Positions 1-26,002 of a stretch of DNA of 64,000 nt are shown in pieces. The stretch covers positions 11,091-75,090 of the forward strand of contig CADCGZ010000001.1 in NCBI GenBank assembly GCA_902801025.1, read 5' to 3'. Below the pieces are notes generated by a model. That model saw nothing but the letters and a program-made list of their open reading frames with translations, had not been told where the DNA came from and ran no database searches. The position numbers were made by a program, and so were the translations under genes. Position 1 is the first letter of the stretch, and each line of letters starts with the position of its first letter. This DNA is from an uncultured bacterium (GTDB taxonomy: Bacteria > Verrucomicrobiota > Kiritimatiellia > RFP12 > UBA1067).

Positions 1-3000
1 CAATACGAATATGGCCTTGGCGCGACCGAGTCGGCGGTGACGGAATGGCTGACCAACCCGACGAATATCGCCGAGGCCGGGACTTGGATCGTCAGGGCCA
101 CGATTCCCGCTAATGACAACTGGGCGTCCGCAACGAAAATCGCAACGTTTGAGATGTGGGACGATCCCGGGAAGCTCTACGACTACCGTGTTGACATCTT
201 CGTGAAGGGCGGATCAGTTCCCCTCACGAACTTCCCCGTCCCCGTGAGAATTTCTGAAGCACGCATAGGGGGCTTCAAGTACAAGCACGCGGATTCAAAG
301 GGGCAGCAGCTTGTGTTCATCGATACAGATGGCAACATCCTGCCCTACGAAGTCGACACGTGGGACACGGCTGGTGAGTCGCTCGTGTGGGTGGGGCTTG
401 CGACGTTGCCGACGACCGGCATGAAGATTACGATGTTCTGGGGGCTTGGCGACGGGAAGGAGCCGTTCGAATACACTCCAAAGGCGGTGTGGGACGAGAA
501 CTTTGTCGGCATCTGGCACATGACCGCATCTGGCGCAACGGGCAAGACCGTTGCGGATACTACTGGACGGAGCGACGGTACGCTTGTCGGATTAGCGACA
601 AGTCAGGCAGGACTGCTTGGCAAGTCAGTTTCGCTCCCGTCTCCAAACGAAAGTTCATGGATCACATGCGGGACAAAGCAGCCCAACTCCGAACTTGCAG
701 AGGGTTTTACTGTCGAGGGCTGGGCCAACGCGTCCAACTATTCAAGCAGGCACGCCATGTTTGGTAAGAAACAGTTTATATCGGTTCGAACTGAGTCCAA
801 GACGCAGATTGCCGTGACGACAATCGGTAAGAAGGATTTTTATATAGATACATCCCTGCCAGATGCCGGAAACTGGTTCCACTACGCGTTGACATTCAGG
901 CCCAGCGTGGCTGGCGGGCTCCAGTTCTATATCAACGGAGCACTGGTAAATGAGCAGACGACAGCGGTAGATAAACCGGGATACAACGACCCTACATCAT
1001 CCTCTGAAATGTTCATCGGTCGCAACGAATTCAGCACCGATCAGTATTTCCACGGACTTCTCGACGAATGTCGCCTTTCCAAGACGATTCGCCCAGGCGA
1101 ATGGATCGCTGCAGAATACGAGAGTATGTTTGATGAGAGCTTTGCGCTTACGAATTCCCCCGTCTATCACGGCGAAAAGAAGATAAATGTCTGGCTTGAA
1201 GTCCCTGCTCTTGACAAGACAGACTGGGATGCGAATGATACGCCCGGTTCGTTTATCTCCGAGGGCAAGTTGCTTTACGGCGATGTCACGAACGTTATTT
1301 ACTCTGTGTACACAGGTGAGACGTTTGCAGGGCTCTCGGATGTCACGAATGCTGGTCTTTATCGCATTGACTTTCTGCCGACCGAGACCGAGGGATATGA
1401 GCCGATCAGCTACACAATTGACATCCATGTCGTCGAGAGTCAGCCGTATACCGATATTGGCGGCAATGGTGGTGATTCTGGGCGTGTTCTCCTGATGAAT
1501 AATCATACTAAAGACCCTAATGCGGTTGACATTGATTATCAAGGATGGTATGATGCGGATAACACTGAACAAATCGATGGCAAAAAAGCTTTTGCAGGAA
1601 AATCCGACACAGTAACGTTCTGGCATCATCAGAATCTCACGGCGCCAGCGGTTACGGCATATAACCTTAAGCACGGAACGATATCGACTCTATACACAAA
1701 AAACTATGGGTCGCGACTTTGGGATCTTTATAATTGCCGTCATGGGAACACCTTCCCAACGAAAGATACAGATCCTCTTGTCGGCACGCAAAACTATTTG
1801 CCATGGAAAGCCACGTACTCACGGCGAATAAATGCTCATAACACATTGTCTGGTTCGCGTTCAACTGTTGGCCAACTTGTGATGCAGAACACGACTGACG
1901 CCGTTGTTTACTCGTCTTGCTTTACGAACGGTATTGGCACGATTTACTTCGATGCAGTGAATGGCTGGTGCCGTAGCGATGAGAATTACGAGAACTATAA
2001 AATTGTTGTTGAAATCGCGACGAATACAATTTATGGGCTTGAGCCGACGGACGTAAATAGCATGACAATCATTGAGACAACAAATGATGTCGAGAATGTT
2101 GGTATCGTCATTACTACAACCACAAACTATTATGGCAATCTTGAAGGGCAGTGGATTGCCGCGGGAATGATCCCATTCAAGCGCGATGGAACGGCAAACT
2201 TTGTCGAAGAGTCCAAGACGAGCGAGCTTGCGCTTTCAGTGATGAATGGCGGCACGATGGACAACTTCTACCGCGTTGTCGTTCCACTTGACATTGCAGG
2301 GCCAGTCCGTTTCCGAATAAGAAGAAGCAAGGCCGACGAAGATCGACCTGTTGACGTTTCCTCCTTCATCCTCCTCGATAACATCATTGCCTCGATTCCT
2401 GCGATGCGTGGAGATCTGGTGTCGGCGGGCCACTTCGACGCGGAAAAGAAGGGTTCGCAGGTGCTTGGCTGGGAGCTCGCGACGAGCACGCCCTATCCGT
2501 CCGGCGCAGATGCAGACCTGATAGCCCGCGCAACGCCTGTGTACACATTGAACGTCGGCGACGGCTCGACGCCCGATACGAACACGTTCTTCTCGTCTGC
2601 GACGATGCACTACCGCTGGCGCTACCTGAACCAGCAGGCAACCGACTGGCGGACGGTCGTCCTCAACCCGAGCGATGGCTTCAAGGCGCTTTCGGCCCTC
2701 GACCTCCCGGGACGCGTCGGCGACGTAGAATACTGGTTCGACTACAAGCTCCAGGCGCCGTTCTACAAGTACGTCGACTATTCAGGCGCGAGCAACGCCT
2801 CGATCAACTACACCGAGGAGCGCGGCATCCTCACGAACCGGCTCGACGGCGCGACGTTCGCGAGCGGCGGCACCGACTGGTTCTTCCGCCTGCGCGACGG
2901 GAAGAGCGACTATGCGGGCTTCGACATCGTCTTCAAGCGCGGCAACAGCGAGAATGTCGAGCGCGTCCACATGGCGCTTGCCGAAGATCATGTCTGGCGC

Positions 3001-6000
3001 GGCTTCGTCCAGACTAAGGAAAACCAGACCGGCCCGATAAAGTACCACATCGAGGCCCTTGACGAGCAGACGGAGCCCTTCGCCGAATATGCCGCGACGA
3101 CGAACTACTTCAACTGCAAGGTGGACGATCCCAAGTTCCCCGTCAGCGAGTCGCTCGTGCCCGGCGCCGCCGACAGCTGGTCGACGCTCACGCTCGACGC
3201 CGTGACGGGATACGTCATGTTCCAGATAGACGATACGTCGAAGGCGCTGACGGTAGTCCACGCCGACTACCAGAACGCAAACGGCTGGAACGACGCACAC
3301 GATCGCGTGGGACAGGACAAGAACGGGAATTCGGTGTCCAAGATCTTCGTCGGCACTTCGACGACCAACGCATACAAGATTGGCGTCTCGCCGTCGAAGC
3401 AGACGTTCAGCGAGGACTTCTCGGCCTGGGGCACGATGCCGGCGACGAACGAAACGTGGACGTTCCCGACGGGACTTACTGACATTCAGTCGGAACACAT
3501 GTACGGCCGCAAGGCATACGAGACGTTTGCGAGCGAGACGAACGGGCTTTGGGACATTGGCCAGGGCATGTGGGTGGCAAAGAAATACATGATTGACAAG
3601 GGCGCCGACGCCGGGGTCGCATTGCAGATGGAGGGCAACGGCAAGGGCTTCTTCCAGTTCACCGACAAAGACAGGGCACCGCGGGGTCTTGAATCGATAT
3701 CGTTCAACGTACGTCTCGGCCAGTTCATAGAATTCGACGATTTCAACTACTATGACGGCGAGGTCAAGATGTCGCTCATGAACTATACGTTCTACACGAG
3801 GGCGGCCTTTGACACAAATTCGAACAAGGATTTCAGGGGCAATGGGTCGCTTTCGGTCATCGCCAACTACCTGCCGAACAAGGGATGCTACGAGGCGAGA
3901 TGGGAACAGATAGCCAACGAATCAAGTAGCAAGGGCGGTCAGCGCCTGTGCCTCTATCGCTGGAATGTGTCGCGCAACGGGAAGACTGAAAAGCTGTTGA
4001 CCGCATGGACCAATGTCAACACATTTGCACAGGCGAAGACAACGGCGTTTAGCAGCAGTGCAAAGTTCATGCCGTTCTACATTACCGTCTCGAACGACAC
4101 GGCAAACGCCTGCACATGGGTCGCGGCAGGTGTGTGCGACACCGCCATAGCGCCAAACGCTTCGTGGCAGTCGAGCAAGTGGTACATTGTCGCCTGCAGG
4201 GACAACGATTCTCAAAATCGCCTTGTCAGGGGCACATACGGCGTCCTGTCATCGAACTGCGACGGCGTCTTTATGGTGCCGCAGTATTCCCCGAACGTGG
4301 TTTTCAGCAAGGATGACGAATTGAAGCTGGCGGCAGGCAAGGCCGGGTTCTACACGCAGAAGACTCGTACGGGGCCGGCGGGACTTGTCATGCGCACGGA
4401 CGGCTTTGGATCGAAAGACGACGTAGATGTAAACTGGAACATAATTCCAGGAAGAATGAAGACGAGGAAAGAGGGAACGGACGACTATACAATAGGAATC
4501 GTAGCCGATCCGAACGTCCAGAACCTTGAGATATATCTCGGCACGGCCGGTCGCGCCGACTGGGGTGCAACACCGTACAAGACAATTGCCATTAATGGCT
4601 TCGGCGGCGCCACGACAAACATTGCCCTCTACACGACGAAGGACTGCTCCGTCAGGTTTGCGGTCGCCGGAACGGGTCGAGACATCAGAACCGACGTCGT
4701 CGTCGATACTGTGCAGCTAAGGCAGTGGCGCGGCGGGAACTGGGACGACGACGATGTGTGGCCGCTTCTCCCGGCGTGGGCGGACGCCCAGCACCGCAAC
4801 AAGCCGGTCGGGCACACGAACTTCGTCTTCACCTCGGCCTGGGTGACGAACCATACCGTGCTCCTTAGCGCCAAGCGCGCGAAGGTCGACGAGCCGTCGT
4901 CGATACGCTCGCCGCTGATGGACGGCTTCTCGGACGATAACACGGGCTACGTCCGCGGCAAGGGCCTTGGCATGATCTCCATCGGCTACGCGAACGCCCA
5001 GGAGAACGCCGTCCTGACGCTGCAGATTGCGACGAACGGCGTCGACTACACGTCGATCGGGACCTACGACCACCATCTCGAGTCCACCATCTGGACGCCG
5101 ATCACGAATTATAACTTCGGGGCGATGACGGAGACGCAGCGCAAGTCGGGCGTTCTCAATACCTACTTGGGGCTCCATGATCTCAAGGGCGCGATGCGCA
5201 TCATCGTGAGCACCAACGTAATCGCCAATGTCGCAGGCGAGACGAATCCTCAAAGATTCGGCGACGTGACGATAACCTCGATTTCCTGCAGCGACGAACC
5301 CGCCGTGGACGTCCACAGCTGGTGGGGCTGGAACCTGCGCACAGTAGGCGGTGACGAGGATAGCGAGAAGAAGATGTTCCTTGGCGACTTTTCGACGGAT
5401 GTCGGCGGGGCGGGCCTCTCGGTCGCGCTTAACAACTCGGTCGACGGCGATAACTGCCAAATTTCCAAGATCGACTACCGTGACCGCGAGTCGTACATCC
5501 AGCACAAGCCGTTCATCCAGACGCCGACGTTCACTTCGAACATCGTGGGCGAAGTCTCGTTCAAGGCCCGCAAGTACTCGTCGTCCGACCCGACGGCCAC
5601 GATCACGATCTACGGGTCGAGGAACGCCTCCGAGACGGACGAGGGCACGTGGGACAGGATCGACAACGGTGTGTTCATGGTGTCGAACGACTGGTACGAG
5701 ACCTACAGCTGCAAGATGGATTCGCGCTACAAGGCGTTCCGCCTCGCCGTCGCGGGCGTTGACGGCGTCATGGAGACCGCCGCAGGCGGCGGCAACGGGC
5801 TTCCCGACGGCGCCTACGACCCGCCGCCGCGCGTCCTCCTTGACGAAATATTCGTCAGCGAAGCCATAGACGCCAGGATGGGCTTCAAGAACGTCGGCTG
5901 CTTCAGGCACGACATGTCGGGGCTCGGCGAGGTGCCGAACGTCCCGAGCGCCGGCGAGCAGCCGCTCTGCGAGGAGTCGTGGGGCGTGCAGTGCGAAATC

Positions 6001-8214
6001 TACGGCGCCCAGCTCGCATCGGACATCGACTTCTCCCACACGCCGCGCGTCAAGCTGTACTGGTACGCGGACATCTCGCCATGGGGCTTCGAAAACTGGA
6101 AGGACAACCCAAAAGCCAATTCCGCGTGGCTTTCCCGCGCGCTCGAGACCGAGGAGGACCGCTACGTCTATCGTTCGAGCATGCGCACGAGCCCTGACGC
6201 CGTCGTGCCGATGTCTATCGTGGCGCCGACTCGCGTGCAGTACATGCTCGAGGTCGTGTTCTACACGAAGGAGAACCCGACCGTCCCGATGACGAACTGG
6301 CTCTCGGCGACCGACTGGCAGATCCCCGACTGGTACAAGCCGCTCGACCTCAACGCCGAATACGGCCGGAACGGCGACTTCGCGGCGTACAACATCCTCG
6401 ACAACGTGGCTCCGGGCTGGGCGTGGATCAACGAGGTCAACATCTTCGGCGAGTTCAAGAACTGGAGCAACTCCGACGAGAACTGCCAGTTCGTCGAAAT
6501 CGCCCATCCGCCTGAGGCCGATGTCTCCGGCTGGCAGGTGCGCCTCCTCGAGCCGAGCATGGGCAACAACCTCATCTACACCAATGTTCTCGCAAGGTTC
6601 GGCAGCGGTGGACTCGCGGGCACGAAGCAGATGTCGTCCGAGGACGCCGAGGTCAACATGGTCTTCCGCGTGATCGGCAGCCCCCTGTCGCGGTCGAGCG
6701 GACGGCTCAAGAAGTCGGACGGCACTCTCGACGCCGTGTGGGGCGTCGACAACCCGACGCTTGAGTTCACGTCCGACGGCGTCATCAGCTACTACGACCC
6801 GATGGTCTTCCAGCTCGTCCGCACAAGCGGCATCATCGAACACGAAATCATCGTCGAAGGCACGAACTACCTCGAGTCGCTCGAGATCGAGTCGCCCGAC
6901 TACCTCAGGGAGATGCGCGACTTCGTGACGAACAAGCTCCAGCAGAGCACGATTCCGATCCCCGGCTACGACTACGGCGGCGCGAGCAACTCCCTCAGCG
7001 TGATCCAGAACTTCGGGCACAACGGCATGGAGGAGCCCGAGAACGACTGGACGACGGCCGTCAAGATGACGCCCGGCGGCCGTAACATAGGCCAGGTCAT
7101 CGACCCCAACCATCCGGTGCCGGCGGGCGAGGAGATTCTCGTCTACTTCACCGTGACAGGCGACCACATCACGCAGTCCATGGATGGCTCGAACTTCACG
7201 AACGGCATGTTCTCCGCGATCGTAACGAAGAACAACCCCGTCGGCACTAACGTCATCTACAGGGTCGACCCGTGGTATGTGCTCGGCTCGGTGAGGACAG
7301 GGACGGTCTCGCTGATCGACAAGGCGGTGCAGACCAAGGCGACGCAGCCCTTCGAGTATACGCTTTCCAACGTCGCGAAGGGAATCTCCAACAACGTGAC
7401 GGTCGTGGCTTCGGCTGTGCTCAACCCGAAATTAGGCACCGACTGGGGCGTTCCCGAGGACGATCCCTACCGCGACGCGATCATCGACTGGCTCGAGGGC
7501 GGCACGGACCTCTACGGCAATCCGTTCGCCGACGTGGAATCGGGCGACATAAAGCTCGCGAACTACCGCTCGTGGTGGACCCGCGAAGTCGTGACGAACC
7601 TGACGCTGAGGGAGATGTACTGGCTCGACATGGATCCCACGATCGGCAACCTCTCGCTCATCGGCGGCATAACCGTCGATCCGCACGGCATAGAGCACGT
7701 CGTGACGCGGACCATCGGCGAAAGCTCGGTCATCATGACGAACCGCCGCGTGAACGTCTACATGATGATCTCGAACGAGAACGCGACGGTTGCGGCGCCG
7801 ACGCATCCGCGCGGCGCACACGACTTCACGACGCACTGGACGCCGTACGTTCTGCGCGGGCTGAAGCCGGGAGAGAGCTCTCGCTACTACGTGTCTGCGA
7901 CGGACGACTGGGACAGCGTCACGTTCAAGATCACGGGCATGCTCATGAACGGCTACACGTCGTTCGAAAACGTCGACAACAAGGTCCCCTTGAGGCACTT
8001 CGTGTTCAACGAGAACTCGTTCAGCGCCGAAGGGCTCTCGAAGATCGAGGTCTACGACCCGTATTCGCCGCTCTCGGTCGGCTACAACGCCGGCTGGAAG
8101 CGCTGGTGGGACAAGCACGGCTACTGCCCCGTCGTATTCTTCTGGATGATCGACACGAGACTTCCGCCTGTTGGCGTGGAGCAGTTGCAGGAGGACAGCT
8201 ACTATGGCGACTGA
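1..8214 (+). CDS. giant secreted/surface protein, 5'-partial (>=2737 aa): DUF2341-like + LamG jelly-roll modules near the N-terminus, lamin-tail-domain (LTD)-like module near the C-terminus
   Basis: Frame 1 has no stop from nt 1, so the GTG at 37 in the ORF track is not a credible start. Stop is TGA at 8212-8214. The translation shows a LamG/ConA-like module ending LLDECRLSKTIRPGEWIAAEYESM (nt ~150-1130). It also shows an LTD-like signature AWINEVNIFGE..CQFVEIAHPPEADVSGWQVRLLE (nt ~6420-6550). Overlapping antisense ORFs are Arg/Val/Ala/Asp-rich low-complexity artefacts. Confidence 0.85.
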   Translation, partial: QYEYGLGATESAVTEWLTNPTNIAEAGTWIVRATIPANDNWASATKIATFEMWDDPGKLYDYRVDIFVKGGSVPLTNFPVPVRISEARIGGFKYKHADSKGQQLVFIDTDGNILPYEVDTWDTAGESLVWVGLATLPTTGMKITMFWGLGDGKEPFEYTPKAVWDENFVGIWHMTASGATGKTVADTTGRSDGTLVGLATSQAGLLGKSVSLPSPNESSWITCGTKQPNSELAEGFTVEGWANASNYSSRHAMFGKKQFISVRTESKTQIAVTTIGKKDFYIDTSLPDAGNWFHYALTFRPSVAGGLQFYINGALVNEQTTAVDKPGYNDPTSSSEMFIGRNEFSTDQYFHGLLDECRLSKTIRPGEWIAAEYESMFDESFALTNSPVYHGEKKINVWLEVPALDKTDWDANDTPGSFISEGKLLYGDVTNVIYSVYTGETFAGLSDVTNAGLYRIDFLPTETEGYEPISYTIDIHVVESQPYTDIGGNGGDSGRVLLMNNHTKDPNAVDIDYQGWYDADNTEQIDGKKAFAGKSDTVTFWHHQNLTAPAVTAYNLKHGTISTLYTKNYGSRLWDLYNCRHGNTFPTKDTDPLVGTQNYLPWKATYSRRINAHNTLSGSRSTVGQLVMQNTTDAVVYSSCFTNGIGTIYFDAVNGWCRSDENYENYKIVVEIATNTIYGLEPTDVNSMTIIETTNDVENVGIVITTTTNYYGNLEGQWIAAGMIPFKRDGTANFVEESKTSELALSVMNGGTMDNFYRVVVPLDIAGPVRFRIRRSKADEDRPVDVSSFILLDNIIASIPAMRGDLVSAGHFDAEKKGSQVLGWELATSTPYPSGADADLIARATPVYTLNVGDGSTPDTNTFFSSATMHYRWRYLNQQATDWRTVVLNPSDGFKALSALDLPGRVGDVEYWFDYKLQAPFYKYVDYSGASNASINYTEERGILTNRLDGATFASGGTDWFFRLRDGKSDYAGFDIVFKRGNSENVERVHMALAEDHVWRGFVQTKENQTGPIKYHIEALDEQTEPFAEYAATTNYFNCKVDDPKFPVSESLVPGAADSWSTLTLDAVTGYVMFQIDDTSKALTVVHADYQNANGWNDAHDRVGQDKNGNSVSKIFVGTSTTNAYKIGVSPSKQTFSEDFSAWGTMPATNETWTFPTGLTDIQSEHMYGRKAYETFASETNGLWDIGQGMWVAKKYMIDKGADAGVALQMEGNGKGFFQFTDKDRAPRGLESISFNVRLGQFIEFDDFNYYDGEVKMSLMNYTFYTRAAFDTNSNKDFRGNGSLSVIANYLPNKGCYEARWEQIANESSSKGGQRLCLYRWNVSRNGKTEKLLTAWTNVNTFAQAKTTAFSSSAKFMPFYITVSNDTANACTWVAAGVCDTAIAPNASWQSSKWYIVACRDNDSQNRLVRGTYGVLSSNCDGVFMVPQYSPNVVFSKDDELKLAAGKAGFYTQKTRTGPAGLVMRTDGFGSKDDVDVNWNIIPGRMKTRKEGTDDYTIGIVADPNVQNLEIYLGTAGRADWGATPYKTIAINGFGGATTNIALYTTKDCSVRFAVAGTGRDIRTDVVVDTVQLRQWRGGNWDDDDVWPLLPAWADAQHRNKPVGHTNFVFTSAWVTNHTVLLSAKRAKVDEPSSIRSPLMDGFSDDNTGYVRGKGLGMISIGYANAQENAVLTLQIATNGVDYTSIGTYDHHLESTIWTPITNYNFGAMTETQRKSGVLNTYLGLHDLKGAMRIIVSTNVIANVAGETNPQRFGDVTITSISCSDEPAVDVHSWWGWNLRTVGGDEDSEKKMFLGDFSTDVGGAGLSVALNNSVDGDNCQISKIDYRDRESYIQHKPFIQTPTFTSNIVGEVSFKARKYSSSDPTATITIYGSRNASETDEGTWDRIDNGVFMVSNDWYETYSCKMDSRYKAFRLAVAGVDGVMETAAGGGNGLPDGAYDPPPRVLLDEIFVSEAIDARMGFKNVGCFRHDMSGLGEVPNVPSAGEQPLCEESWGVQCEIYGAQLASDIDFSHTPRVKLYWYADISPWGFENWKDNPKANSAWLSRALETEEDRYVYRSSMRTSPDAVVPMSIVAPTRVQYMLEVVFYTKENPTVPMTNWLSATDWQIPDWYKPLDLNAEYGRNGDFAAYNILDNVAPGWAWINEVNIFGEFKNWSNSDENCQFVEIAHPPEADVSGWQVRLLEPSMGNNLIYTNVLARFGSGGLAGTKQMSSEDAEVNMVFRVIGSPLSRSSGRLKKSDGTLDAVWGVDNPTLEFTSDGVISYYDPMVFQLVRTSGIIEHEIIVEGTNYLESLEIESPDYLREMRDFVTNKLQQSTIPIPGYDYGGASNSLSVIQNFGHNGMEEPENDWTTAVKMTPGGRNIGQVIDPNHPVPAGEEILVYFTVTGDHITQSMDGSNFTNGMFSAIVTKNNPVGTNVIYRVDPWYVLGSVRTGTVSLIDKAVQTKATQPFEYTLSNVAKGISNNVTVVASAVLNPKLGTDWGVPEDDPYRDAIIDWLEGGTDLYGNPFADVESGDIKLANYRSWWTREVVTNLTLREMYWLDMDPTIGNLSLIGGITVDPHGIEHVVTRTIGESSVIMTNRRVNVYMMISNENATVAAPTHPRGAHDFTTHWTPYVLRGLKPGESSRYYVSATDDWDSVTFKITGMLMNGYTSFENVDNKVPLRHFVFNENSFSAEGLSKIEVYDPYSPLSVGYNAGWKRWWDKHGYCPVVFFWMIDTRLPPVGVEQLQEDSYYGD

Positions 8215-8647: not shown

Positions 8648-8650
8648 ATC

Positions 8651-17600: not shown

Positions 17601-20600
17601 CGACGCAGCACGAGCTCTCCAAGTACGCGCTCAACAACTCGGCGATGCCGTATCCTTACCACAATTACTTCCTCGAGCGCTACCAGCGTCTCTTCAAGCT
17701 CAACCTGCTCGCCCAGACCGATCCCGAGAACTTCCTGCTCGAAGATCTCGTCTGCCGCTACGAGTACGAGATTCGCTCCGACTTCATCGGCACGGCCGAT
17801 CTCGTCCCGATGGGCGGCGCGTACTCGAAGACCTGCCCGGCCATGTGGGACGGCAACGGCGTCGCTGACGCCTGGGAATACACATCGGTCGACACGGACG
17901 CCGACGGACTTCCTGACTGGTGGGAGGACCTCTACGGTCTCGACCCGGCGGGCGGCTATGACTGGAACTCCATGGTCGACTGGAACGGCGCTCAGATGCC
18001 CGCCTACATCGCCTACACCGTCGACCTCGCGCTCGGCATGCAGCCCGATGGCGAGTACCATCCCGAATACGCCTCGACAGTTGACGCAGACGCCGACAAC
18101 ATCCCCGACTGGTGGGAGAACCTGTTCGGCGTCGCCGGATACGGCGCCGAGGACGACCCCGACAAGGACGGACTTCCGAACTACGCGGAATACCTCATCA
18201 GCTTCGGCCCGTATCCGTATGGCATCACGAACGGCTGGGCGTTCATCAGCCCGCTGAACGCCTATTCGACGAAGGCCGACCAGCGTGTGCCGGACTACTA
18301 TCTCCGTGCGCCCAAGGCGTTCGACGATGGCGGTCGCCACATCAATGCGAATGAATACTACGGCGAAATCGTCACTGACCATGACTTCATGGAAAGCTGG
18401 TGGGAGAACAGCTTCCCGCTCGCCTACGTAAACTCGCACGTCTACGATCCTGACAGGGATGTGGATGGCGACGGCTGGGACAACTGGAGCGAGAACCGCG
18501 CGGCAACATGGTACGGCACGCTGCTCTCCGACCTGATCACGAAGTATCTCTCTGACGACGTGTCGCTCAAGAACTACCCGCAGCCGGCGATCGGCATCAG
18601 GTTCACTTATCCTGAGGGCAACATCCAGGACATCTCCGGGAAGTCGGTCGTTGTCAGGACAATGACCGCTGGCCGTGCAAGGACAGATGCAACGTTTACC
18701 ATTGTGGCTCCAGAGGCGGCTGAGGTCGGCATGGCTGTATACACCGTAGGGGCATTTATTGATAATAGCACGCCAATACAAGGCTTCTTGCAACCGGGCA
18801 ATGTGGTTCCAACCTCTTGCTATGTTTACGGCTTGCATCTTTCAAAGGAAGGCGTCAGTTATTGGGGCATTCCGAGATCGATTTATAGGGAGGATGTCCA
18901 GTGGCGTGATGGCATAAGGGCGCCAAGTTCCTCTGGCACGTATATAGCTACGACAACATTGACCAGAGCCGATGGGACAGCTGTGGATTGCTGGTATTTC
19001 AGAGGAACTTTCCCAGATTATGTCGCAGACGTTCGTTCCTATGGGCGGGATAATGTTATCCTTGATAATCCAGCACTTGACTTTGAAATTGTTGGACGTG
19101 CGGTCAGCCGCGACGACGGGCGCATCGGAGACATAATAATTTCGAGCGCTCAGACCACCGATCAAAGCGTGTTTGGCAGCATCAATTTCATAACGGGTGA
19201 GTTCACTCTGAATCCGGCGCAGCTTGAGACGGCCGGACTTGAACCTGACGGAATGTTGGTGAAGTTCGAATACACTTATTCGATCAGCACCGAGTGGCCG
19301 CAAACGCTGTGGCTCAACAATCCTTCGTCCGGTCGCGTCAGACAGGGTCTCAACACCATTGAGGCGTGGATTGACCTCAATCTTGACGGAGTTTACACGC
19401 CTGGCGAGCCATACGGTGTCGTGCGCAATGTCAACGTTGGCTGGCACAAGACGGCCGAGACGGTAATTGAACTAAAGGACACCTCGACTGTAATTCCGCG
19501 TTATCTGCTTGCCGACGGCTCGAGCGACCGCGCGGTGGTCAAGGGCATCTCCAGCGGTGTGCTGCCCGCCGAGGCTGCCGCGGGCGGCGAAGGCGGCGGC
19601 GCGTCGATTGCTGCGGCCGGCCTGACGGCCGACGTCCTCGTACGTCGTGTCAGCCTGAACGGCCAGCCGAGGGTCGGCGACAAGACGGTGCCTGAGCGCG
19701 TGCTCGTCTCGAAGACGGTCGTCCTGGATGACCGCGCCTATCTGACGGAGGCCGACGTCCTCTCGGACGACAAGTTCGATCTCGACTGGAAGTGGCTCGC
19801 CAAGGACGCCGAGAAGCTCGGAATCACGGGTGTTGACCTCAAGACGGCCGAGTACGAGATATCCACCACCGCCACGTTGCCCGACGGCAGCTCGACGAAC
19901 ATCGCGTTGTCGACGTTCGTAAACACGTTCAACGCGCAGCGCGTCAAGCCGGCGCCCGTGTCGCCGACGCTTGTATCGCCTGTCTACAGCGCGGCGCCGA
20001 CTTTCACGTTCACGTCGCCCGACGACACGATGACGGCGTTCCGCCTGCAGGTTTCGACGTCTACGAACGCGGCCGACGTCGTCTACGACTCCGGCATCCG
20101 TACTCTGCCAGGCCGTGTCCCGACTGCGGTCGGTACCATCGGCTGCACGTTCACGCCGCAGCTGTATGTGAACGACTCCGTCGCGACGAACGGCGCCCCC
20201 GTCTTCGTGGACGGCAGCAACTATTTCTGGCGCGTGACGCTGATGAACGCCAAGTACAACTCGCCTGACGCGGGCTGGGGCGAATGGGCCGAGTTCCAGA
20301 TGGACGTCGCGAACGAGAACCGCTACCCGAAGCTGCCTACTGGCTACGGCAAGTGTGGCGCAGTTGTCCGCTACTTCGGCCCGGGCGAGGCGCCAGAGGG
20401 ACAGGTCGTCGTCGAAGTCCATAAGTCGGCCGACTTCGCCGGTCAGCCGCTCGCGCAGCTGCGCGCCGACGTGTCGCAGCTCGACGACATCGACGACATC
20501 GACACGGTCAACGCGGCGTTCATGGGCATCGAGCCCGGCGCCGTCTACCTGATGGCCTATATCGACGCGAACAACAACGGTCGCCGTGACGTGAACGAGT

Positions 20601-23600
20601 CGTGGGGCTATGCCAACTACATCGGCACCGCCCATCTGTCGATCTACACCCCGCGTGACGTAACGGTGACCGACGAGCTCTACCTGACTGGCGAGCCGCC
20701 GAAGGTCGTGATCTTCATCGAGGACACCGACATCAACCGCAACGAGATTCCCGACTGCCTTGAAGACGCGGACGTTAGCTCGTCCTCTGCCGCCTCCGGC
20801 GACACGGACCGCGACGGCCTTCTCGACGAGGAAGAGCCGAGCTACGCCACCGAGTCGACAATCTGGGATACCGACGGCGACGGCATGCCCGACGGATGGG
20901 AAGTCAAGTTCGCCGACCTCGACCCGAACTTCAACGACGCAGTCGAGGCGGCAGAAGGCGACGTGATGGCCTTTGTCAAGCAGGACTGCACGATCGTGAC
21001 GGTTAGGAACACCGACGGCTCCGATGCCGTCAACTACATCCTGAAGGAAGGCCAGTTGCCGCCTGTCAGGGGAGACTCCATCGACGGGTACTCGCTCTAC
21101 GTTCCGTACGACTACCCCGTCGTCACGAGCAACGGCGTCGAGAGCTGCTACGGACGCGGCGCCGAGGTGCAGCTCAAGGCGGCGGCCGGCACGACGAACC
21201 GCGTCATCGACGTCTCGTCTGGCAAGGTCGTGCTTGTCCACTGGCAGGTGTACGACGAGTTCGGCTTCAATCCTCGGACGGCGAACCCAGTCGCCTTCGC
21301 CAACGGAACCGCCGTCAACACCAAGGAGTTCACGGCGCTCGACAAGTATCTGGTCATCCGCTACCTCGAGGCGCTTGGGCTTTGTAGCGAGGACGAGGTC
21401 AATGTCAAGGGCCAGTGGGCGCAGTATTCGCTCAGGCCGTTCGACAGCGACAACGATCTCGACGGCATTGCGGACGGCTGGGAGCTCTACGTGATGTTCG
21501 GCCATGGCGGCGCTCAGGAACTTTCGATGGAGCCGAGCCCGAAGGTCATCAGCCCGTGGGTCTTCGACGACAGGTCGATGGATCACGACGGCGACAAGCT
21601 CGCGGACGTCCATGAGTACGACCGCGGCAACTACCCGACCGATCCCTGGGACGTGGACAGCGACGGAGACGGCGTAACCGACTACTTCGCCTGGAAGTAC
21701 CATCTCAAGGGCACCGACGGCGTCAAGGACTTCGACGGAGACGGCCTCTCCAACTACGTCGAGTATCTGCTCGCCGAAGTGTTCTCGATAGCCGAATTCT
21801 CGCCGGACGACGCCTTCAGCGTGAACCCGAACGTTTCCGACTACTTCTATCGCCTCAACGAGCTCTATGTCGGCGAGATCTTCACGGATCACGATCGCGT
21901 CTGGGACGTCTGGGAGTCTGGATACTTCGCCAAGGAGGACGATGTCTCGCCGTATGTCTATGACGAAATGCTCGATCCCGACGGCGACGGGTGGTCGAAC
22001 TACTCCGAGTTCCAGGCCGGCACTGCGCCGACGAAGCTTGGCTCTCTCAGCGTCGACGCGATCCAGATGGACGAGTACCCGGTGCCGACGATCGAGCTCA
22101 AGCTCTCCTACAACGGCAACCAGTCCGTCGGCGACAAGGCAGTCGTCGTCAAGGCGTGGAGCGACCCGAAGCTCGTGACCATTCCCGACGCCGTCTGGAC
22201 GCTTGGCGGGCAGGGCAACGTCTCGGTCACCGAGAACGGCAACTCCAACATAGTGACCGGCGTCAAGTACTTCGGCATGAACCCGATGCGCGAGATGCTC
22301 GTCCACCTCTCGCCCGGTAGCGTCGTCCCCGGATCGGTCAAGTTCGAGTTCAAGGATCTTGCCTGGGTGCTCTACAACGAGCTTACGGAGCAAGGCTACC
22401 TCAACGACCCGGTGACCGCTCTCTGGGAGGGCGGAATCATCGACCAGCAGCGCAACGACAACTCCGGACTTGGCGACATCGTCAGCCAGGACGAAACGAC
22501 CAAGTCGCTCGGCACTATTGACTACGCGACGGGCGAGATGAAGGTAGACTTCGCCGCGTTCTCGGAATACTTCGCCATCGTCGGCGACATTTCCGGGCGA
22601 GTCACGGGCAACGGCTGGCTCTCGATCTACAACCTGCAGAAGAGCTATGTCCGCGTCAACTGGCAGTCGAAGCTGATAGCCGGCAGCACGGTCACGACGT
22701 ACTACCTCTCCGAGGCCGACAAGCGTTCTGCCTCCAACAACTCGCTTGGCCACGTCAAGGAGGGTCTGAACACGTTTGTCGCGTTCTACGATCTCGACGG
22801 CGACGGCATGTACACGGCGGGTGAGCCGTACGGCTGCGCGGTCGGCGTCGACGTTGGCTGGAACTATGCCCGCGCCGAGATCGAACTGACCGACACGCAT
22901 CCGGTCTCTGCCCGTATCTGCTGCATCACAGGCGCGGCCGGCGGCGCCGCGGCGGCCGGCTCGACAGGCGGCGGATCTTCCGACAGCACGCTCGGCCAAA
23001 GCGACCGTAAAGTCCTCTGGGGAACCGAGCATGGCGACATTCCCCCGGAGATGCTTCTCGTGAGCCAGGAAACCGGTGGCAAGTATATGCACATCCGCGT
23101 CGTCCGTACGCTGATCGACGGCAAGGACTGCACGCTGTACAACGTGCCCGCAAGGGTCGTCCTCGACAAGGAGTATCTCAGCGTCGACAGCGTACGCTAC
23201 CTCACCGAGGCCGACTTCCTTGCGAACGGAGCGCTTGACATCGACTGGCAGGACCTTGCCAACGACCTCAGCAAGGCCAACGTCAACGGCCTCGCGATTT
23301 CGAACGTGACCTATCGCATTGTCATGGGCGAAGGCGACGTCTCGAACTCCGCGACGAACAACTGCGTCGGCGCGTTCAATCGCTGGTTCGACTCGCTGTC
23401 CGTCTACAATGCCTCGAAGCCGATCCTCCTTGACGACGACCAAATGATTACCGCCGTCTCGCCGACGTTCAAGTGGGCGATTCCGAACGGGCTTGGCACC
23501 TATACGGCGTTCCGCATCGAGATTACCGGCGATGGCTTTGCCTGGGATTCCGGGTTCCAGAGGATGCCGCCGCGCATCATGGATCCAGGCAAGGACTACA

Positions 23601-24769
23601 AGTGCCACTACGAGTGGACGGCGCCCATTTGCGTGGACGATCTGGTCGCCATCAACGGCAGGACGGCGCGCTTCGCGAACGACAAACGGTACGCCTGGCG
23701 CGTGACGCTTGCGAACGCCCGGTTCCGCGAGAACTGGTCGGTGCAGGGGCATTTCCACATGAACGTGCCAGAGCCATCGCGGGAATGTGGCAAGGCCCAA
23801 GTGGCCGTCCGCTACTACGGCCCCTCCAATGTCGCAAACGGCTCCGTCATCAGGGTCGAGGCGTTCACGACGCCCGACTTCTCGGGAGAGCCGGTCTCTC
23901 GCGGCTATGTGACGAACAAGTCCGACATCGCCTCGGCGGATGCGATCACCGTTGCGAACGCGACGCTTCCTGGGCTCAAGACCGGCAGCTACTACATCCG
24001 CGCCTACATTGACACGCTGTCCAACGGCATGCACGAGGGTTGGGAGTCGTGGGGTTGCTACTGCACGCGTGACGTCGCGACTGGCACGATCTACACGCCG
24101 AAGAGCGTGACGGTTGGGCCGGAGATCGGCGGGGGCGACATCATCCCTGTCTACATCGATGACTGCGATACCGATCGGGACTGCCTGCCCGATGCGTGGG
24201 AATGGGCGTCGAACGGCAATCTCTCGACGTATGGCTCCGCGCAGATCGACCAGACCGCGACGGGTGGCTTTGCGCTGAAGACGTCCCTTGGCCAGAACCT
24301 GAGGTCCGGCGGCTCGCCGTCGGGCGGGCTTGCGGTGATGGTTAGCCGCGTGCTCTCGTCGCCGCGCATCGCCGCGCAGATTGTCGGCGTCGACGCGACT
24401 GGAACCGACGAGCAGGTCAATGCGACGCTTGCAAACGTCTCCGCCGATGCCGAGGCGACGCCTGTTGCCGTTGCGATCACGGCGATTGCGCTTGACCGCA
24501 CGGCCGGCACCGTCTCCATCTCGGCCGACACCGAGGGTGCAGCGTCCGGCGACGCGGCGTCGCAGATATACACGATACCAGGCGGCGCCGACACGCTTGA
24601 GCTGACTTGCAAGGTCCTGCACCGCGATTCGCTCGACTCTGGCGACTGGACGGTGATCAAGACCGAGAAGGTCACGATCGAGAAGAAGTCCAGGACGTAC
24701 ACGTTCGACCTCGGCTCGTCGCCGATCGACCTCTCGAGCGGGTTCTTCAAGGTTTCTCTGGAAAAATAA
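8651..24769 (+). CDS. giant secreted protein (5372 aa) with many thrombospondin-type-3-like Ca-binding repeats, a LamG-type domain and a duplicated ~470-aa C-terminal module
   Basis: Signal peptide MKKKLTTLALTAALGLFAGPFAKA. More than 15 DxDxDGxxDxxE repeats (DTDGDGMPDGWE, DFDGDGLTDLEE, DTDADGLPDWWE, DPDKDGLPNYAEY...). LamG-like module ending VDEVRIWDGVRTASEISANYAKKM (nt ~16440-17200). TAA at 24767-24769. Confidence 0.9.
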   Translation: MKKKLTTLALTAALGLFAGPFAKAADGDIYDIVPCTEYGVDRGAWTIPDDPFGSGVDVYFKIRLVAREFNGAAPVSLWRLDYDGLISPSVVSNLYPMQIGIYVSGRQTFAKLDTVLAEGNYTTALIFKYTTKPGDFAMPIRLATAAGPAGDAIGNGEYVFNPATSYWKMSRYDSSNNSISDCNWTFTSDNTRIGRAITDIGRSPVTDYSLQDCGIYVKTVDFSNDWEDAAYWRSIHENSTITGGGISPRLAITAPSDEKRSFYVWSSDESKIKVKASGSVTVSPVTMQIDSSGTMDTFQVAKVSFEGGSGDPVPFLVEAQPNSSGDTANLILSAYDHFNYSASSTDQLIDYITVPVKCIEALPASVIVESADKSITADNDYMTAKTSLAVYLSQAVETNVTITIKTTFEDDATKTDWGNYVRFSTSANTVQTLPVDNEVTITIPAGSTEKRIVYIYALRGDSHTTGDGHQVKFTPYVDPAVMAAAGIQDLTAAGLWISAAKPVITTPDSTSTYEVTAGEELEINVAVEDTYADMTDTATGYQVKIKTGSTASWTTLPERFKVTGEEGELIGLTSGNPPTIEYPSAGTQTSQIQVIAPISGKKSEIVTFTVNVAAAKTTSAMSLDPDPDNYVEGDIVHFRIALSSQNDTGAPIYAFLVCNEDVDLSMFGGTASKAILRDRTAAAPGSVGRQIGEVGSYADSSFTVLDGLSSDDGGLNYTFSVVLCRTKEYDPAQRLEGYATTEMLNITVYNKEPEFVTVSLNGFDADGDGYTFSNQYPKGQDQTIQPTFDDVSYDLKHGFSYKWTASRDGKAEVNGTVMHDTTGTVTTPTTTWNGNQCTTVVPDGENINECPIVYNFPRAGTWTVKIQMKDKDMTKISPVSYSISFVILSNPAITITADSSYDENLNAAKFDVGLGYFDSDDDIVVKLTVTPPAGTNPGSLVLDNEFKTVPAGYPALADNEYYVVFDSAQAISIGIDSMDGTRLSSSKGFVVRAEVVTTTQSVDPTMTWAEYYTPHETKIYVNNITPEFDYVTPENTNAWTVAGGAADSYPISWGIRNDVDYDFTTGWANGEGPGIKVSFKGCDNETTFYVTDTDPWSGTFIPNFGSRQKDQTVVLTIQDKDGGIQSWTYLYFIRPSKFLTTIPNGPTGFGNSDLSKKYSRTALKGGRGEGHLYVPGATFSDGTGWRQRWNCSSSAAVDVYAWGYHVGAFDNGWLNNERDIAIDEVGESTAKAAAADVTAGYYPYPDAEKDSFLYAWLISTPQTESGPPEWTLTLAPEQPSAKAEPATAYLPTATTEDESYIPVYAEAVFSKEWYPEDNLGDINQDGIPDYFAIATWGNGLSLITTMTGAENADADLTDIAAGNPDEDYIPGVWQAQGKLNLVNKELASYAPIGYPLNNRLELRGFHYGLNETSLTMSDVCFSTAETNAYKAAFKAKNNADWTEADGFDLNFWCPEPRGKGEQYRMDPTMDDTDSDGMPDGWEYFFWYQAKVWAPANEGLGKPRDGQLFVFERFNPNDIVRGIEIPAAEVLERFDPCVELDMTVKDFNPDFDGDGLTDLEELVIGTNPCHWDTDGDHMCDGWEVLHSLDPLNGSKVGNPDGDFMAYLSLRLYMAAEIPNADPNAPTTYVFDLGQELREPRDYETREIEMYAMKKYYDSNGFYIHTVSPKDANGDDNYPLYYYLDADGNMRYTVDENDPNAGANTIMRYTSMGAITVRDVPLTAALIAPEKLDATGAPYLYGLETDAPPIPIPAVWHWSYPMLDHKYTDADGNLVFRRGTYTIPEGTLLVNTTHILIHDQVEAAFGFDPRTGWYRNGAGYVADRWNPQINLDLAPTDSTGLAVNTDPYTDYDEYLVMRYRHDFGIRYYDDGKYDPGDIWATFLAFTTKPNIVYAKSDIEAMLNQTNATENATTYDTETSANLLATANISEYLANAFAEVGSTKSPVKGHGADTDGDGVPDGWELYKGRNPNAAPSRPTAVGRDREGFGEPWDKDGDLLGYTAEYAGTDSCNAYKDCPSIYNNHPGLHPAGEGFQQGWFNKFFPTDPDNPDTDGDGILDGYEGMAWRGTWYNGGNSYIVAPTAAGMTFIYGNPQDSITCCVRGGGMNPCTVDTDIDGLPDPWEMQYAGIAVDALTRKYVGPAPNFDPDIAEATFTSDGLNAAGFALASNVVYICGGMDATWGGDGFTDPLMNGNSTDALLGTVRDVDFDHDGLQNYQEYLVQQVRHFRYDDITTPLMGRYLDEGEYDLMNPMGPLLSNHVINEAPAFTPMMQDADQFVFTAIGNWGDGAVVSIVTNAIDSTVTINEFTGAEMTNFVYEVITNVVPGNTVIARKYYGDGYNYMYSTPWVAAGWRKNGYMASPIHYWDRMITCAVIQPSIMMPPAGVYVSTDPRLADTDGDGMDDYYEMFHGLNPLLGSTGAGAKDIIALAWGAPAFYNAFWNEWTHPDFNRIVALMGMPGSIADPTPLQAAAALDPFRYPWSMGAGEADPDGDGLRNDSERVTANLTSPMTTHTDPTPLWFTDTSSPASYTAQYYQNTMPVTAMPFWPLLVGFDDPYSPQTPDGGYGGFSYLYAFEENEGYDTDNDWKSDGHEIITTTRPGSDPLDFTDPARRQALYLDGNRSWVQSRAMFMRDIFEGKEPSATTVDFFKQFTVEAWIRPEKKAAQTILDRCSLYGYDAINKNEAAIRSNFRLGLTADGRVYGMFDNDDARDSGDNDTVSSQTVDGPEVPLNEWTHVAMTYDGKALLLYVNGIERGRKPTSLIPANGVTVIIQDPTYTNAFTQLSYEAVPGAFFIGGRPLPAGDGGAAAFDTATITYDAMNGDEWFKGYVDEVRIWDGVRTASEISANYAKKMTKADASANREEVYAHLMSPNADASRNDNDGKLRLTAELVQLYDFTTLPGAVNAADVATNPMGFDTAVRGQLVSKPAAFSENIGWWDACATKSTVYTDYAVMPWIENTVHHLPVMDGSVVDSFLYSDYLGGYTTTATQHELSKYALNNSAMPYPYHNYFLERYQRLFKLNLLAQTDPENFLLEDLVCRYEYEIRSDFIGTADLVPMGGAYSKTCPAMWDGNGVADAWEYTSVDTDADGLPDWWEDLYGLDPAGGYDWNSMVDWNGAQMPAYIAYTVDLALGMQPDGEYHPEYASTVDADADNIPDWWENLFGVAGYGAEDDPDKDGLPNYAEYLISFGPYPYGITNGWAFISPLNAYSTKADQRVPDYYLRAPKAFDDGGRHINANEYYGEIVTDHDFMESWWENSFPLAYVNSHVYDPDRDVDGDGWDNWSENRAATWYGTLLSDLITKYLSDDVSLKNYPQPAIGIRFTYPEGNIQDISGKSVVVRTMTAGRARTDATFTIVAPEAAEVGMAVYTVGAFIDNSTPIQGFLQPGNVVPTSCYVYGLHLSKEGVSYWGIPRSIYREDVQWRDGIRAPSSSGTYIATTTLTRADGTAVDCWYFRGTFPDYVADVRSYGRDNVILDNPALDFEIVGRAVSRDDGRIGDIIISSAQTTDQSVFGSINFITGEFTLNPAQLETAGLEPDGMLVKFEYTYSISTEWPQTLWLNNPSSGRVRQGLNTIEAWIDLNLDGVYTPGEPYGVVRNVNVGWHKTAETVIELKDTSTVIPRYLLADGSSDRAVVKGISSGVLPAEAAAGGEGGGASIAAAGLTADVLVRRVSLNGQPRVGDKTVPERVLVSKTVVLDDRAYLTEADVLSDDKFDLDWKWLAKDAEKLGITGVDLKTAEYEISTTATLPDGSSTNIALSTFVNTFNAQRVKPAPVSPTLVSPVYSAAPTFTFTSPDDTMTAFRLQVSTSTNAADVVYDSGIRTLPGRVPTAVGTIGCTFTPQLYVNDSVATNGAPVFVDGSNYFWRVTLMNAKYNSPDAGWGEWAEFQMDVANENRYPKLPTGYGKCGAVVRYFGPGEAPEGQVVVEVHKSADFAGQPLAQLRADVSQLDDIDDIDTVNAAFMGIEPGAVYLMAYIDANNNGRRDVNESWGYANYIGTAHLSIYTPRDVTVTDELYLTGEPPKVVIFIEDTDINRNEIPDCLEDADVSSSSAASGDTDRDGLLDEEEPSYATESTIWDTDGDGMPDGWEVKFADLDPNFNDAVEAAEGDVMAFVKQDCTIVTVRNTDGSDAVNYILKEGQLPPVRGDSIDGYSLYVPYDYPVVTSNGVESCYGRGAEVQLKAAAGTTNRVIDVSSGKVVLVHWQVYDEFGFNPRTANPVAFANGTAVNTKEFTALDKYLVIRYLEALGLCSEDEVNVKGQWAQYSLRPFDSDNDLDGIADGWELYVMFGHGGAQELSMEPSPKVISPWVFDDRSMDHDGDKLADVHEYDRGNYPTDPWDVDSDGDGVTDYFAWKYHLKGTDGVKDFDGDGLSNYVEYLLAEVFSIAEFSPDDAFSVNPNVSDYFYRLNELYVGEIFTDHDRVWDVWESGYFAKEDDVSPYVYDEMLDPDGDGWSNYSEFQAGTAPTKLGSLSVDAIQMDEYPVPTIELKLSYNGNQSVGDKAVVVKAWSDPKLVTIPDAVWTLGGQGNVSVTENGNSNIVTGVKYFGMNPMREMLVHLSPGSVVPGSVKFEFKDLAWVLYNELTEQGYLNDPVTALWEGGIIDQQRNDNSGLGDIVSQDETTKSLGTIDYATGEMKVDFAAFSEYFAIVGDISGRVTGNGWLSIYNLQKSYVRVNWQSKLIAGSTVTTYYLSEADKRSASNNSLGHVKEGLNTFVAFYDLDGDGMYTAGEPYGCAVGVDVGWNYARAEIELTDTHPVSARICCITGAAGGAAAAGSTGGGSSDSTLGQSDRKVLWGTEHGDIPPEMLLVSQETGGKYMHIRVVRTLIDGKDCTLYNVPARVVLDKEYLSVDSVRYLTEADFLANGALDIDWQDLANDLSKANVNGLAISNVTYRIVMGEGDVSNSATNNCVGAFNRWFDSLSVYNASKPILLDDDQMITAVSPTFKWAIPNGLGTYTAFRIEITGDGFAWDSGFQRMPPRIMDPGKDYKCHYEWTAPICVDDLVAINGRTARFANDKRYAWRVTLANARFRENWSVQGHFHMNVPEPSRECGKAQVAVRYYGPSNVANGSVIRVEAFTTPDFSGEPVSRGYVTNKSDIASADAITVANATLPGLKTGSYYIRAYIDTLSNGMHEGWESWGCYCTRDVATGTIYTPKSVTVGPEIGGGDIIPVYIDDCDTDRDCLPDAWEWASNGNLSTYGSAQIDQTATGGFALKTSLGQNLRSGGSPSGGLAVMVSRVLSSPRIAAQIVGVDATGTDEQVNATLANVSADAEATPVAVAITAIALDRTAGTVSISADTEGAASGDAASQIYTIPGGADTLELTCKVLHRDSLDSGDWTVIKTEKVTIEKKSRTYTFDLGSSPIDLSSGFFKVSLEK

Positions 24770-25946: not shown

Positions 25947-25950
25947 AATC

Positions 25951-26000
25951 GACCCTAAAGGACTCTAAAAGACTCTAAAAGACACTAATTGACCCTACTG
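25951..26000. repeat. 5 x 10-bp phased tandem words GACNCTAANN in the ackA-pta spacer
   Basis: GACCCTAAAG GACTCTAAAA GACTCTAAAA GACACTAATT GACCCTACTG. The same word family occurs inside kdsD, inside uvrA and in the hairpin after the secretin gene. Confidence 0.9.
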
Positions 26001-26002
26001 CT

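Follow-up and report, generated by a model that had tools for sequence, protein, structure and literature searches.

Giant surface adhesins exported by the Sec pathway or by type I secretion systems (T1SS), such as the LapA/SiiE/MpIBP-type proteins, SprB of Flavobacterium and SwmB of Synechococcus, are the closest described systems for the locus reported here. For the small protein of the locus, a functional analogy is offered by the lipase-specific foldase Lif and the secretin pilotins, helical helpers of the periplasm that are bound to a membrane and whose genes adjoin that of the client. The locus lies in a 64,000-nt stretch of DNA from an uncultured bacterium of the Kiritimatiellia (contig C1, positions 11091-75090; hereafter the window), part of a 3.5-Mb metagenome-assembled genome of 195 contigs and 82.6% completeness. 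According to the list of open reading frames (ORFs) and their translations, positions 1-24769 of the window are filled by three intact, co-directional ORFs on the plus strand, namely two giant genes, giant 1 and giant 2, and a gene for a small protein between them. The cassette is real, conserved and undescribed, and its products resemble the known giant adhesin-type proteins of cell surfaces that come with a helper of their own. On balance, we favor the reading that the small protein and giant 2 form a conserved functional unit, composed of a tethered periplasmic helper and a calcium-binding LamG fibre, and that giant 1 is a separate giant of the clade core.

Similar to LapA/SiiE/MpIBP, SprB and SwmB, the giants comprise thousands of residues, chains of immunoglobulin (Ig)-like domains, calcium repeats, a length variation caused by repeat number and a small accessory gene in the operon. 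In contrast to these adhesins, they contain neither RTX nonapeptides nor the C-terminal domain (CTD) of the type IX secretion system (T9SS) nor an autotransporter barrel, and no sequence relationship extends beyond the domain types. Kiritimatiellae of gut and rumen are abundant uncultured glycan degraders, and about 0.7% of the present genome encodes the two giants. A described family is lacking for 2,300 residues of giant 1, for most of giant 2 and for the whole small protein. The three genes are located as follows.

1 to 8214, plus strand: giant 1, C-terminal 2,737 of 3,392 residues; frame open from base 1, TGA stop at 8212-8214
8204 to 8647, plus strand: gene of the small protein of 147 residues; ATG at 8204 (the first ATG), TAA at 8645-8647
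8651 to 24769, plus strand: giant 2, 5,372 residues; ATG at 8651

The frame of giant 1, walked upstream, begins with an ATG at C1:9126, 1,965 nt before the window, which yields the full length of 3,392 residues. A first-pass annotation of the sequence had described about 24.7 kb of three packed genes with an 11-nt overlap followed by a 3-nt gap, and giants of at least 2737 and of 5372 residues. Reading of the ORFs and the junction DNA confirmed this arrangement throughout (ATG 8204 against TGA 8212-8214 for the overlap, and the 3-nt gap between the small gene and giant 2); the size of giant 2 was exact, and giant 1 had to be extended. The sequence GGAGGA is located 9 nt 5' of the ATG of the small gene. 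A consensus scan detected no promoter-like or terminator-like sites at either junction, and the three tightly packed genes are probably co-transcribed. Homologue clusters number more than 370 for giant 1, 137 for the small protein and 63 for giant 2, hence all three are real genes; the few homologues with source names originate from Kiritimatiellae. Antisense ORFs of 3,605 and 1,797 residues inside giant 2 were dismissed as artefacts of the coding frame with 62% GC, and nothing supports them as genes.

Within the genus, the order giant 1-small gene-giant 2 was present on all four contigs inspected, with 3,276-3,453 residues for giant 1 and 4,129-4,433 residues for giant 2. When the C-terminal end of giant 1 and the N-terminal end of giant 2 were located by coordinates, 17 of 19 genomes had the two on the same contig and strand with 120-650 nt between them; in the other two, contig ends interrupt the locus. 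The 17 genomes include G356, with both of its copies, which is assigned to genus g156 though the sequences are ~80% identical. This genome (5% contamination) carries two complete cassettes on its contigs C131 and C17, one ~80% and the other ~48% identical to the window, which represent either two binned strains or a true duplication. Outside the genus the picture differs. In the sister genera g19 and g21, both giants were present in all ten genomes and always on different contigs. The giant 1 homologue (a frame of 2,245-2,703 residues) is located on another contig and followed by leuS, encoding leucyl-tRNA synthetase, and the order at giant 2 is a secreted Peptidase_C10 protein (~1,000-1,180 residues, E 1e-24), a homologue of the small protein (120-173 residues) and giant 2. 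Public metagenome contigs with independent gene calls display the same succession of a C10 protein (973-1,120 residues), a small protein (157-173 residues) and a protein of ~4,015-4,022 residues. Since giant 1 is unlinked in the sister genera and a C10 peptidase is encoded upstream instead, the small gene and giant 2 are the invariant unit, preceded by a variable slot that holds either giant 1 or the C10 peptidase. The giant-small-giant arrangement, for which the first-pass annotation had proposed a conservation check, thus holds within the genus and dissolves outside of it. The distinction between a conserved pair and a genus-specific neighbor shows experimenters which pair to test. A C10 peptidase hidden in giant 1, or encoded upstream of giant 1 in this genus, was searched for and ruled out: the C10 homologues of this genome are encoded on other contigs, and those in other genomes of the genus are not upstream of giant 1.

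The small protein consists of a Lys-rich basic N-terminus, a single hydrophobic anchor helix of ~22 residues and a helical remainder (~90 helical residues), which supports the anchor and the helical part of the earlier description as one transmembrane helix with a coiled coil. It contains a conserved R-M-x-D-P-x-Y-x-x-x-L motif. Its family comprises 137 clusters of 92-194 residues; among the best 120 of these, 102 have the motif R-h-x-D-x-x-Y just after the anchor and 50 have a lipobox-like Cys motif. The N-terminus is a signal-anchor in this genus and a lipoprotein-type signal (…LLSGC, …LCGC) in the sister genera, and with either anchor the helical part is predicted to be periplasmic and tethered to a membrane. 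The protein affiliates with no Pfam or NCBIfam family, and a PDB search with its profile retrieved only designed helical bundles. Similar to Lif and the pilotins, it would combine an N-terminal tether with an all-helical periplasmic part, and its gene lies directly next to that of a single exported client, to which it is coupled; the resemblance is a functional analogy. In contrast to them, it has no sequence similarity and, with ~100 helical residues, falls well short of Lif in length, and its likeness to a foldase is analogical.

Giant 2 starts with a Sec signal (residues 1-24), predicted to be cleaved between AKA and AD (MKKKLTTLALTAALGLFAGPFAKA followed by ADGD). The N-terminus is conserved: it reads GDIYDI..C here, and a signal peptide followed by GDIYEI..C extends across the 63 homologue clusters. 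Pfam and NCBIfam profiles were run on the whole proteins and on tiles of 700-900 residues, and in both giants together only Gly_rich_2, LamG, TSP3 and a weak DUF2341 matched; a PDB sequence search with giant 1 and 4,000 residues of giant 2 gave no match. The features located in giant 2 are listed below.

16574 to 16966, plus strand: Laminin_G_3 domain, residues 2642-2772 (PF13385, E 2e-20, 73.9 bits)
17876 to 20764, plus strand: repeat module copy 1, residues 3076-4038 (~1,000 residues), from sliding self-comparison
21449 to 24202, plus strand: repeat module copy 2, residues 4267-5184, 30-35% identical to copy 1, from sliding self-comparison
24464 to 24766, plus strand: terminal beta-sandwich in the AlphaFold2 (AF2) model, ends with SGFFKVSLEK; last strand conserved in nearly all orthologues

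The TSP3_bac profile (PF18884) scored 28.4-35.7 bits, above its cut-off of 25 bits, and 21 motifs of the type DxDxDGxxDxxE are distributed between residues 1471 and 4442 of giant 2; giant 1 has none. The signal peptide and the LamG module of the first-pass annotation are thus correct, and its dozens of TSP3 repeats reduce to about 21. The internal repeats were obtained by sliding-window self-comparison, whole-protein BLAST self-comparison being uninformative. Among the 63 clusters, in which lengths range from 3,951 to 7,508 residues, the number of module copies tracks the length of the protein: one copy in proteins of 3,951-4,517 residues, two in those of ~5,100-5,500 and three to four in those of ~6,300-7,500. 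One sister-genus orthologue comprises 8,801 residues. The lengths are stepped by ~1,100 residues, at about 4.1, 5.3, 6.3 and 7.4 thousand residues, with one protein at 8.8 thousand. A relative with 95% identity over the N-terminal 1,300 residues has 4,217 instead of 5,372 residues, a difference of a whole module. In the AF2 model of the last 450 residues (pLDDT 75), three sandwiches are connected by a floppy linker to a fourth, terminal one, and Foldseek matched this model to FN3/Ig arrays. As in CglD and MtsD of Myxococcus (NF033765, NF047639), TSP3 calcium repeats occur in a secreted envelope protein, and weak local matches to these families were obtained (E 8e-10 and 5e-7). In contrast to CglD and MtsD, the matches reach 25-37 bits against cut-offs of 400-800, cover TSP3 stretches only and include no VWA domain, and the architecture is different.

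For the preferred reading, in which the small protein serves giant 2, the following mechanism can be proposed. Sec would take both giants, which consist largely of beta-sandwiches, across the inner membrane. The small protein would be translationally coupled to giant 2 and, tethered and made in step with it, most likely acts as a periplasmic holder or guide of the chain of 4-9 thousand residues, so that it stays competent for export, or attaches it to the envelope. Giant 2 would come to lie on the outer membrane or beyond it, as a lectin-bearing fibre that is stiffened by calcium, reaches further the more modules it has and probably binds glycans or host surfaces. Giant 1 hardly varies in length (~3,300-3,450 residues) and occupies the slot held by the secreted C10 cysteine peptidase in the sister genera. 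It may act with giant 2, since the giants co-occur in 28 of 28 genomes; co-encoding would not be required. For the passage of the giants across the outer membrane, a secretin would be the most economical guess. Several points weigh against this reading. The gene models are ORF calls, and signal peptides and membrane anchors were assigned by eye. The label of an adhesin or fibre, as read from sequence, derives from LamG, TSP3 and Ig-like types, which are found also in enzymes and S-layers. The small protein has no detectable relative of known function, and its putative role as chaperone or tether is drawn by analogy. Lastly, the TM-scores of the Foldseek matches were low (<=0.18), since the queries were multi-domain models.

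The C-termini of the giants contain no sorting domain catalogued in Pfam or NCBIfam. The T9SS CTD (Por_Secre_tail/TIGR04183 and TIGR04131) gave no match in the C-terminal segments at E<=0.1-1, and the terminal domain modelled by AF2 is a generic beta-sandwich. Direct reading of the C-termini revealed no PEP-CTERM, LPXTG or tripartite signal, that is no motif, hydrophobic helix or basic tail, and no such profile matched. RTX or haemolysin-type calcium-binding repeats, as in T1SS adhesins, gave no profile match in either giant; since both carry N-terminal Sec-type signals, they are not T1SS substrates. Type V autotransporters were represented by no family match, and AF2 models of both C-termini are chains of beta-sandwiches with no barrel. 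The first-pass annotation had noted that no recognizable sorting signal is present at the C-termini. This holds for the catalogued domains; the ends are not featureless and display conserved, family-specific endings. In giant 2, the ending SGF[FY][KR]V.[LVI].. occurs in nearly all of the 63 clusters and corresponds, in the AF2 model, to the final strand of the terminal sandwich. A paralogue search of the whole genome with the last 130 and 200 residues of each giant retrieved nothing, hence the giants have no shared CTD by sequence.

Downstream of giant 2, three housekeeping genes are followed by a cluster of five genes that begins 3.6 kb 3' of giant 2.

24810 to 28143, plus strand: ackA, pta and kdsD/kpsF
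28363 to 29064, plus strand: Amuc_1102-like gene (best NCBIfam match)
29133 to 30770, plus strand: Amuc_1101/PilM-like gene (best NCBIfam match)
30767 to 31834, plus strand: Amuc_1100-like gene (best NCBIfam match)
31831 to 32916, plus strand: Amuc_1099-like gene with a TSP3 motif (best NCBIfam match)
32940 to 36611, plus strand: Amuc_1098-like secretin gene (best NCBIfam match)

The best NCBIfam matches of the five genes are the Amuc families in order, with E-values from 2.5e-6 to 7e-119, of which only Amuc_1099_fam exceeds its curated cut-off. Similar to the cluster Amuc_1098-1102 of Akkermansia muciniphila (NF042912, NF042425, NF038287, NF045709 and NF042424), the genes have the same order and the secretin has an N-terminal TPR region. 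The comparison concerns the neighboring cluster, not the giants, and no giant-protein partner is described for the cluster of Akkermansia. It is conceivable, and in our view unlikely, that the three proteins and this PilM/secretin cluster of Amuc_1102-1098 type form a single export-and-display system, in which giant 2, and perhaps giant 1, crosses or docks via the secretin. The block of small gene, giant 2, ackA, pta, kdsD and Amuc_1102 to 1098-like genes persists in three genera. In the sister genera, ackA directly follows giant 2 in 8/8 genomes, and in eight of ten the block is kept on one strand and the secretin is reached 8-15 kb after giant 2; in the other two genomes giant 2 and the secretin are found on different contigs. 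Both flanks are rearranged: a different gene lies upstream, and recA, found here 11 kb further on from the secretin, is located on other contigs in the sister genera, including cases in which the contig with giant 2 would have had room for it. Moreover, TSP3 motifs occur in both the Amuc_1099-like gene and giant 2. Since giant 2 carries a Sec signal but shows no features of T1SS, type V secretion systems (T5SS) or T9SS, the remaining generic route for folded periplasmic cargo is a secretin. In contrast, three housekeeping genes (ackA, pta and kdsD) separate giant 2 from the cluster, which includes neither an ATPase nor a pilin in cis, and the giants have no pilin-like N-termini and do not carry the 7-residue C-terminal tag found on other secreted proteins of the genome (described below). 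At least seven ORFs with a secretin domain were detected in the genome (on contigs C55, C13, C40, C77, C33 and C2 and at 32940-36611 of the window), so that the secretin of the window is not a unique candidate conduit. The earlier proposal of this cluster as a conduit thus had the distance right, and its position relative to giant 2 is kept in three genera, but it is one of at least seven secretins. No outer-membrane protein of Akkermansia is more abundant than the homologous Amuc_1098, which is read as the secretin of a type IV pilus (PMC4960237), and the linkage of giant 2 and secretin may therefore be inherited synteny. A functional or regulatory link would fit the conservation of the block, and unbroken inherited synteny would fit it equally well. 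If the link is synteny only, the locus adds one more family of giant adhesin-like proteins; the shared neighborhood with an Amuc_1100-type cluster offers a testable idea for the cargo of a much-studied, functionally unclear apparatus. As a separate observation, seven or more secretin-domain ORFs are an unusually large set for a genome of 3.5 Mb and 83% completeness.

It appears improbable to us that giant 1, the small protein and giant 2 work as a single unit, with the small coiled-coil protein as anchor or chaperone of the two giants. The order is kept throughout the genus, the stop of giant 1 overlaps the start of the small gene, and giant 1 was present in every one of the 28 tested genomes that have giant 2. 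However, giant 1 is located beside leuS, on a contig different from that of the small gene and giant 2, in at least ten genomes of the two sister genera, where the C10 peptidase occupies the upstream slot, and one genome (G130) has giant 1 and no match to giant 2.

A more specific proposal, which we regard as rather remote, is that the small protein, giant 2 and the variable partner (C10 peptidase or giant 1) are the cargo of the Akkermansia-type (Amuc_1098-1102) PilM/secretin machine. The block would then be an unrecognized export or display route of the Planctomycetes-Verrucomicrobia-Chlamydiae (PVC) bacteria for proteins of 400-900 kDa, and the conserved C-terminal ends would act as recognition elements.

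Giant 1, which the preferred reading sets apart from the conserved pair, has a basic and then hydrophobic N-terminus resembling a Sec-type signal, followed by a Gly_rich_2 domain (Pfam, E 2.6e-20) and, further on, a Laminin_G_3 domain (PF13385, E 6.7e-17, 62.5 bits, above the gathering score); it also carries Ig-like repeats. The features located within the window are these.

301 to 1107, plus strand: DUF2341-like stretch, sub-threshold (301-435), and Laminin_G_3 (694-1107), from Pfam
6385 to 6678, plus strand: beta-sandwich around WINEVNIFG...QFVEIA...SGW (residue 2797), confident AF2 model; no Pfam LTD match
8129 to 8211, plus strand: conserved C-terminal tail (…FFWMIDTRLPPVGVEQLQEDSYYGD), kept by orthologues

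The first-pass annotation had assigned DUF2341-like, LamG and LTD-like modules to this protein, of which LamG was verified. The match to DUF2341 (PF10102) is weak here (E 0.0084, 17 bits against a gathering cut-off of 23.4), and many orthologues have a precomputed PF10102 match, one being named 'DUF2341 domain-containing'. The LTD assignment was rejected at the level of profiles: PF00932 had no match at E<=0.1 in segments of giant 1, none at E<=1 in the C-terminal 992 residues of giant 1 and 20 orthologues, and none among the precomputed matches of 120 giant 1 homologues. The WINEVNIFG module is hence treated as a beta-sandwich with no assigned family. The N-terminal modules are common to ~20 other large ORFs of the genome. 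In contrast, the remaining ~2,300 residues have no match in Pfam, NCBIfam or PDB sequences and no paralogue in the whole genome. The orthologues end with …FFW.[IL]D.RL.P..VE.L[KQ].[ED][NS]YYG[DE], and the last ~10 residues of giant 1 have low AF2 confidence, as expected for a linear motif.

The last 992 residues of giant 1, modelled by AF2 together with 21 orthologues, form successive beta-sandwiches (pLDDT 76). Among the Foldseek matches to this model, an archaeal S-layer Ig array ranked first (E 7e-7, TM-score 0.09); complement MG arrays were among the others, all at TM <= 0.1. The family is large and homogeneous: more than 370 clusters match, the best 120 of them with 40-95% identity over 2,293 residues, and the full-length homologues among these 120 have a median of 3,351 residues and an interquartile range of 3,091-3,410. 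It is very doubtful that the giants are structural components of the envelope (S-layer-like or cell-coat) rather than adhesins, a reading that would explain the near-constant length of giant 1 and its presence in every clade genome tested and that is favored by the S-layer match of its C-terminal third. A TM-score of 0.09 denotes a generic match between beta-sandwich arrays, giant 2 differs by whole modules among relatives with ~95% identical N-termini as is typical of exposed fibres and not of lattices, and no domain that forms a lattice or provides an anchor, such as SLH, was detected.

Upstream of giant 1 (C1:1128-8853), two ATPase_2/DUF234 genes, a gene for a secreted protein of 739 residues from no recognized family, an AAA_14/DUF4143 gene and, in the opposite orientation, a PDDEXK_3 nuclease gene were identified. 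The gene set resembles an accessory or mobile region and may mark a point of rearrangement. Two candidates for a pilin-like gene in this region were discarded: an ORF of 145 residues is Arg-rich antisense noise, and the ORF of 739 residues encodes an unrelated secreted protein.

Other large proteins of the genome share C-terminal endings of their own. About 13 large ORFs have a common C-terminal domain of ~90 residues with the motif W-x-S/T-Y/W-V/L-x-G-L-D-P-T/D, a sandwich and an FF[KR]V.V end; it corresponds to no Pfam or NCBIfam family. Examples of these ORFs are the following.

C30, 2737 to 14058, minus strand: ORF with the FF[KR]V-type C-terminal domain
C94, 7591 to 10245, plus strand: ORF with the FF[KR]V-type C-terminal domain
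C17, 10464 to 12260, plus strand: ORF with the FF[KR]V-type C-terminal domain
C25, 19711 to 23952, minus strand: ORF with the FF[KR]V-type C-terminal domain

One of these ORFs, encoded on contig C94, is the C10 peptidase homologue of this genome, and a last strand of this type also closes the C10 proteins encoded in the sister genera. Giant 2 shares with these ORFs only the last-strand GFFKV and the layout of TSP3 motifs followed by a sandwich, and a hidden Markov model built from ~90 C-terminal residues of the 13 ORFs did not match giant 2 at E<=10. A second ending is a tag of seven residues (G-h-x-h-x-h-R): 87 ORFs of at least 300 residues, including 46 of the 178 ORFs with at least 1,000 residues, end exactly in G-[LF]-x-[IL]-x-[VIL]-[RKY]-stop. 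The stricter form ending in R or K was counted 79 times, against ~10 in position-shifted controls. To our knowledge, this C-terminal tag of secreted Kiritimatiellae proteins is undescribed in the literature. The tag-bearing ORFs inspected have Sec signals (for example C9:26261-37807, minus strand, and C4:42097-46680, plus strand). Similar to giant 1, the tagged proteins belong to the class of large secreted LamG/DUF2341 proteins of this genome, and many of the ~20 ORFs that share its modules are tagged. In contrast to them, each giant has its own conserved C-terminal end: none of the proteins in positions 1-24769 carries the tag, the giants ending with ...YYGD and ...FFKVSLEK and the small protein also being untagged. 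Further downstream in the window, a protein of 1,828 residues with Listeria-Bacteroides repeats (Flg_new, eight copies) is encoded at 39086-44572 on the plus strand, and an ORF of 3,447 residues at C46:14734-25077 (minus strand) ends with …GTATIKKVGSMDITIE; the endings of these two proteins may represent a third shared C-terminal ending. In several genomes of the same genus, the ORF at the position of 39086-44572 carries an N-terminal C10 peptidase domain.

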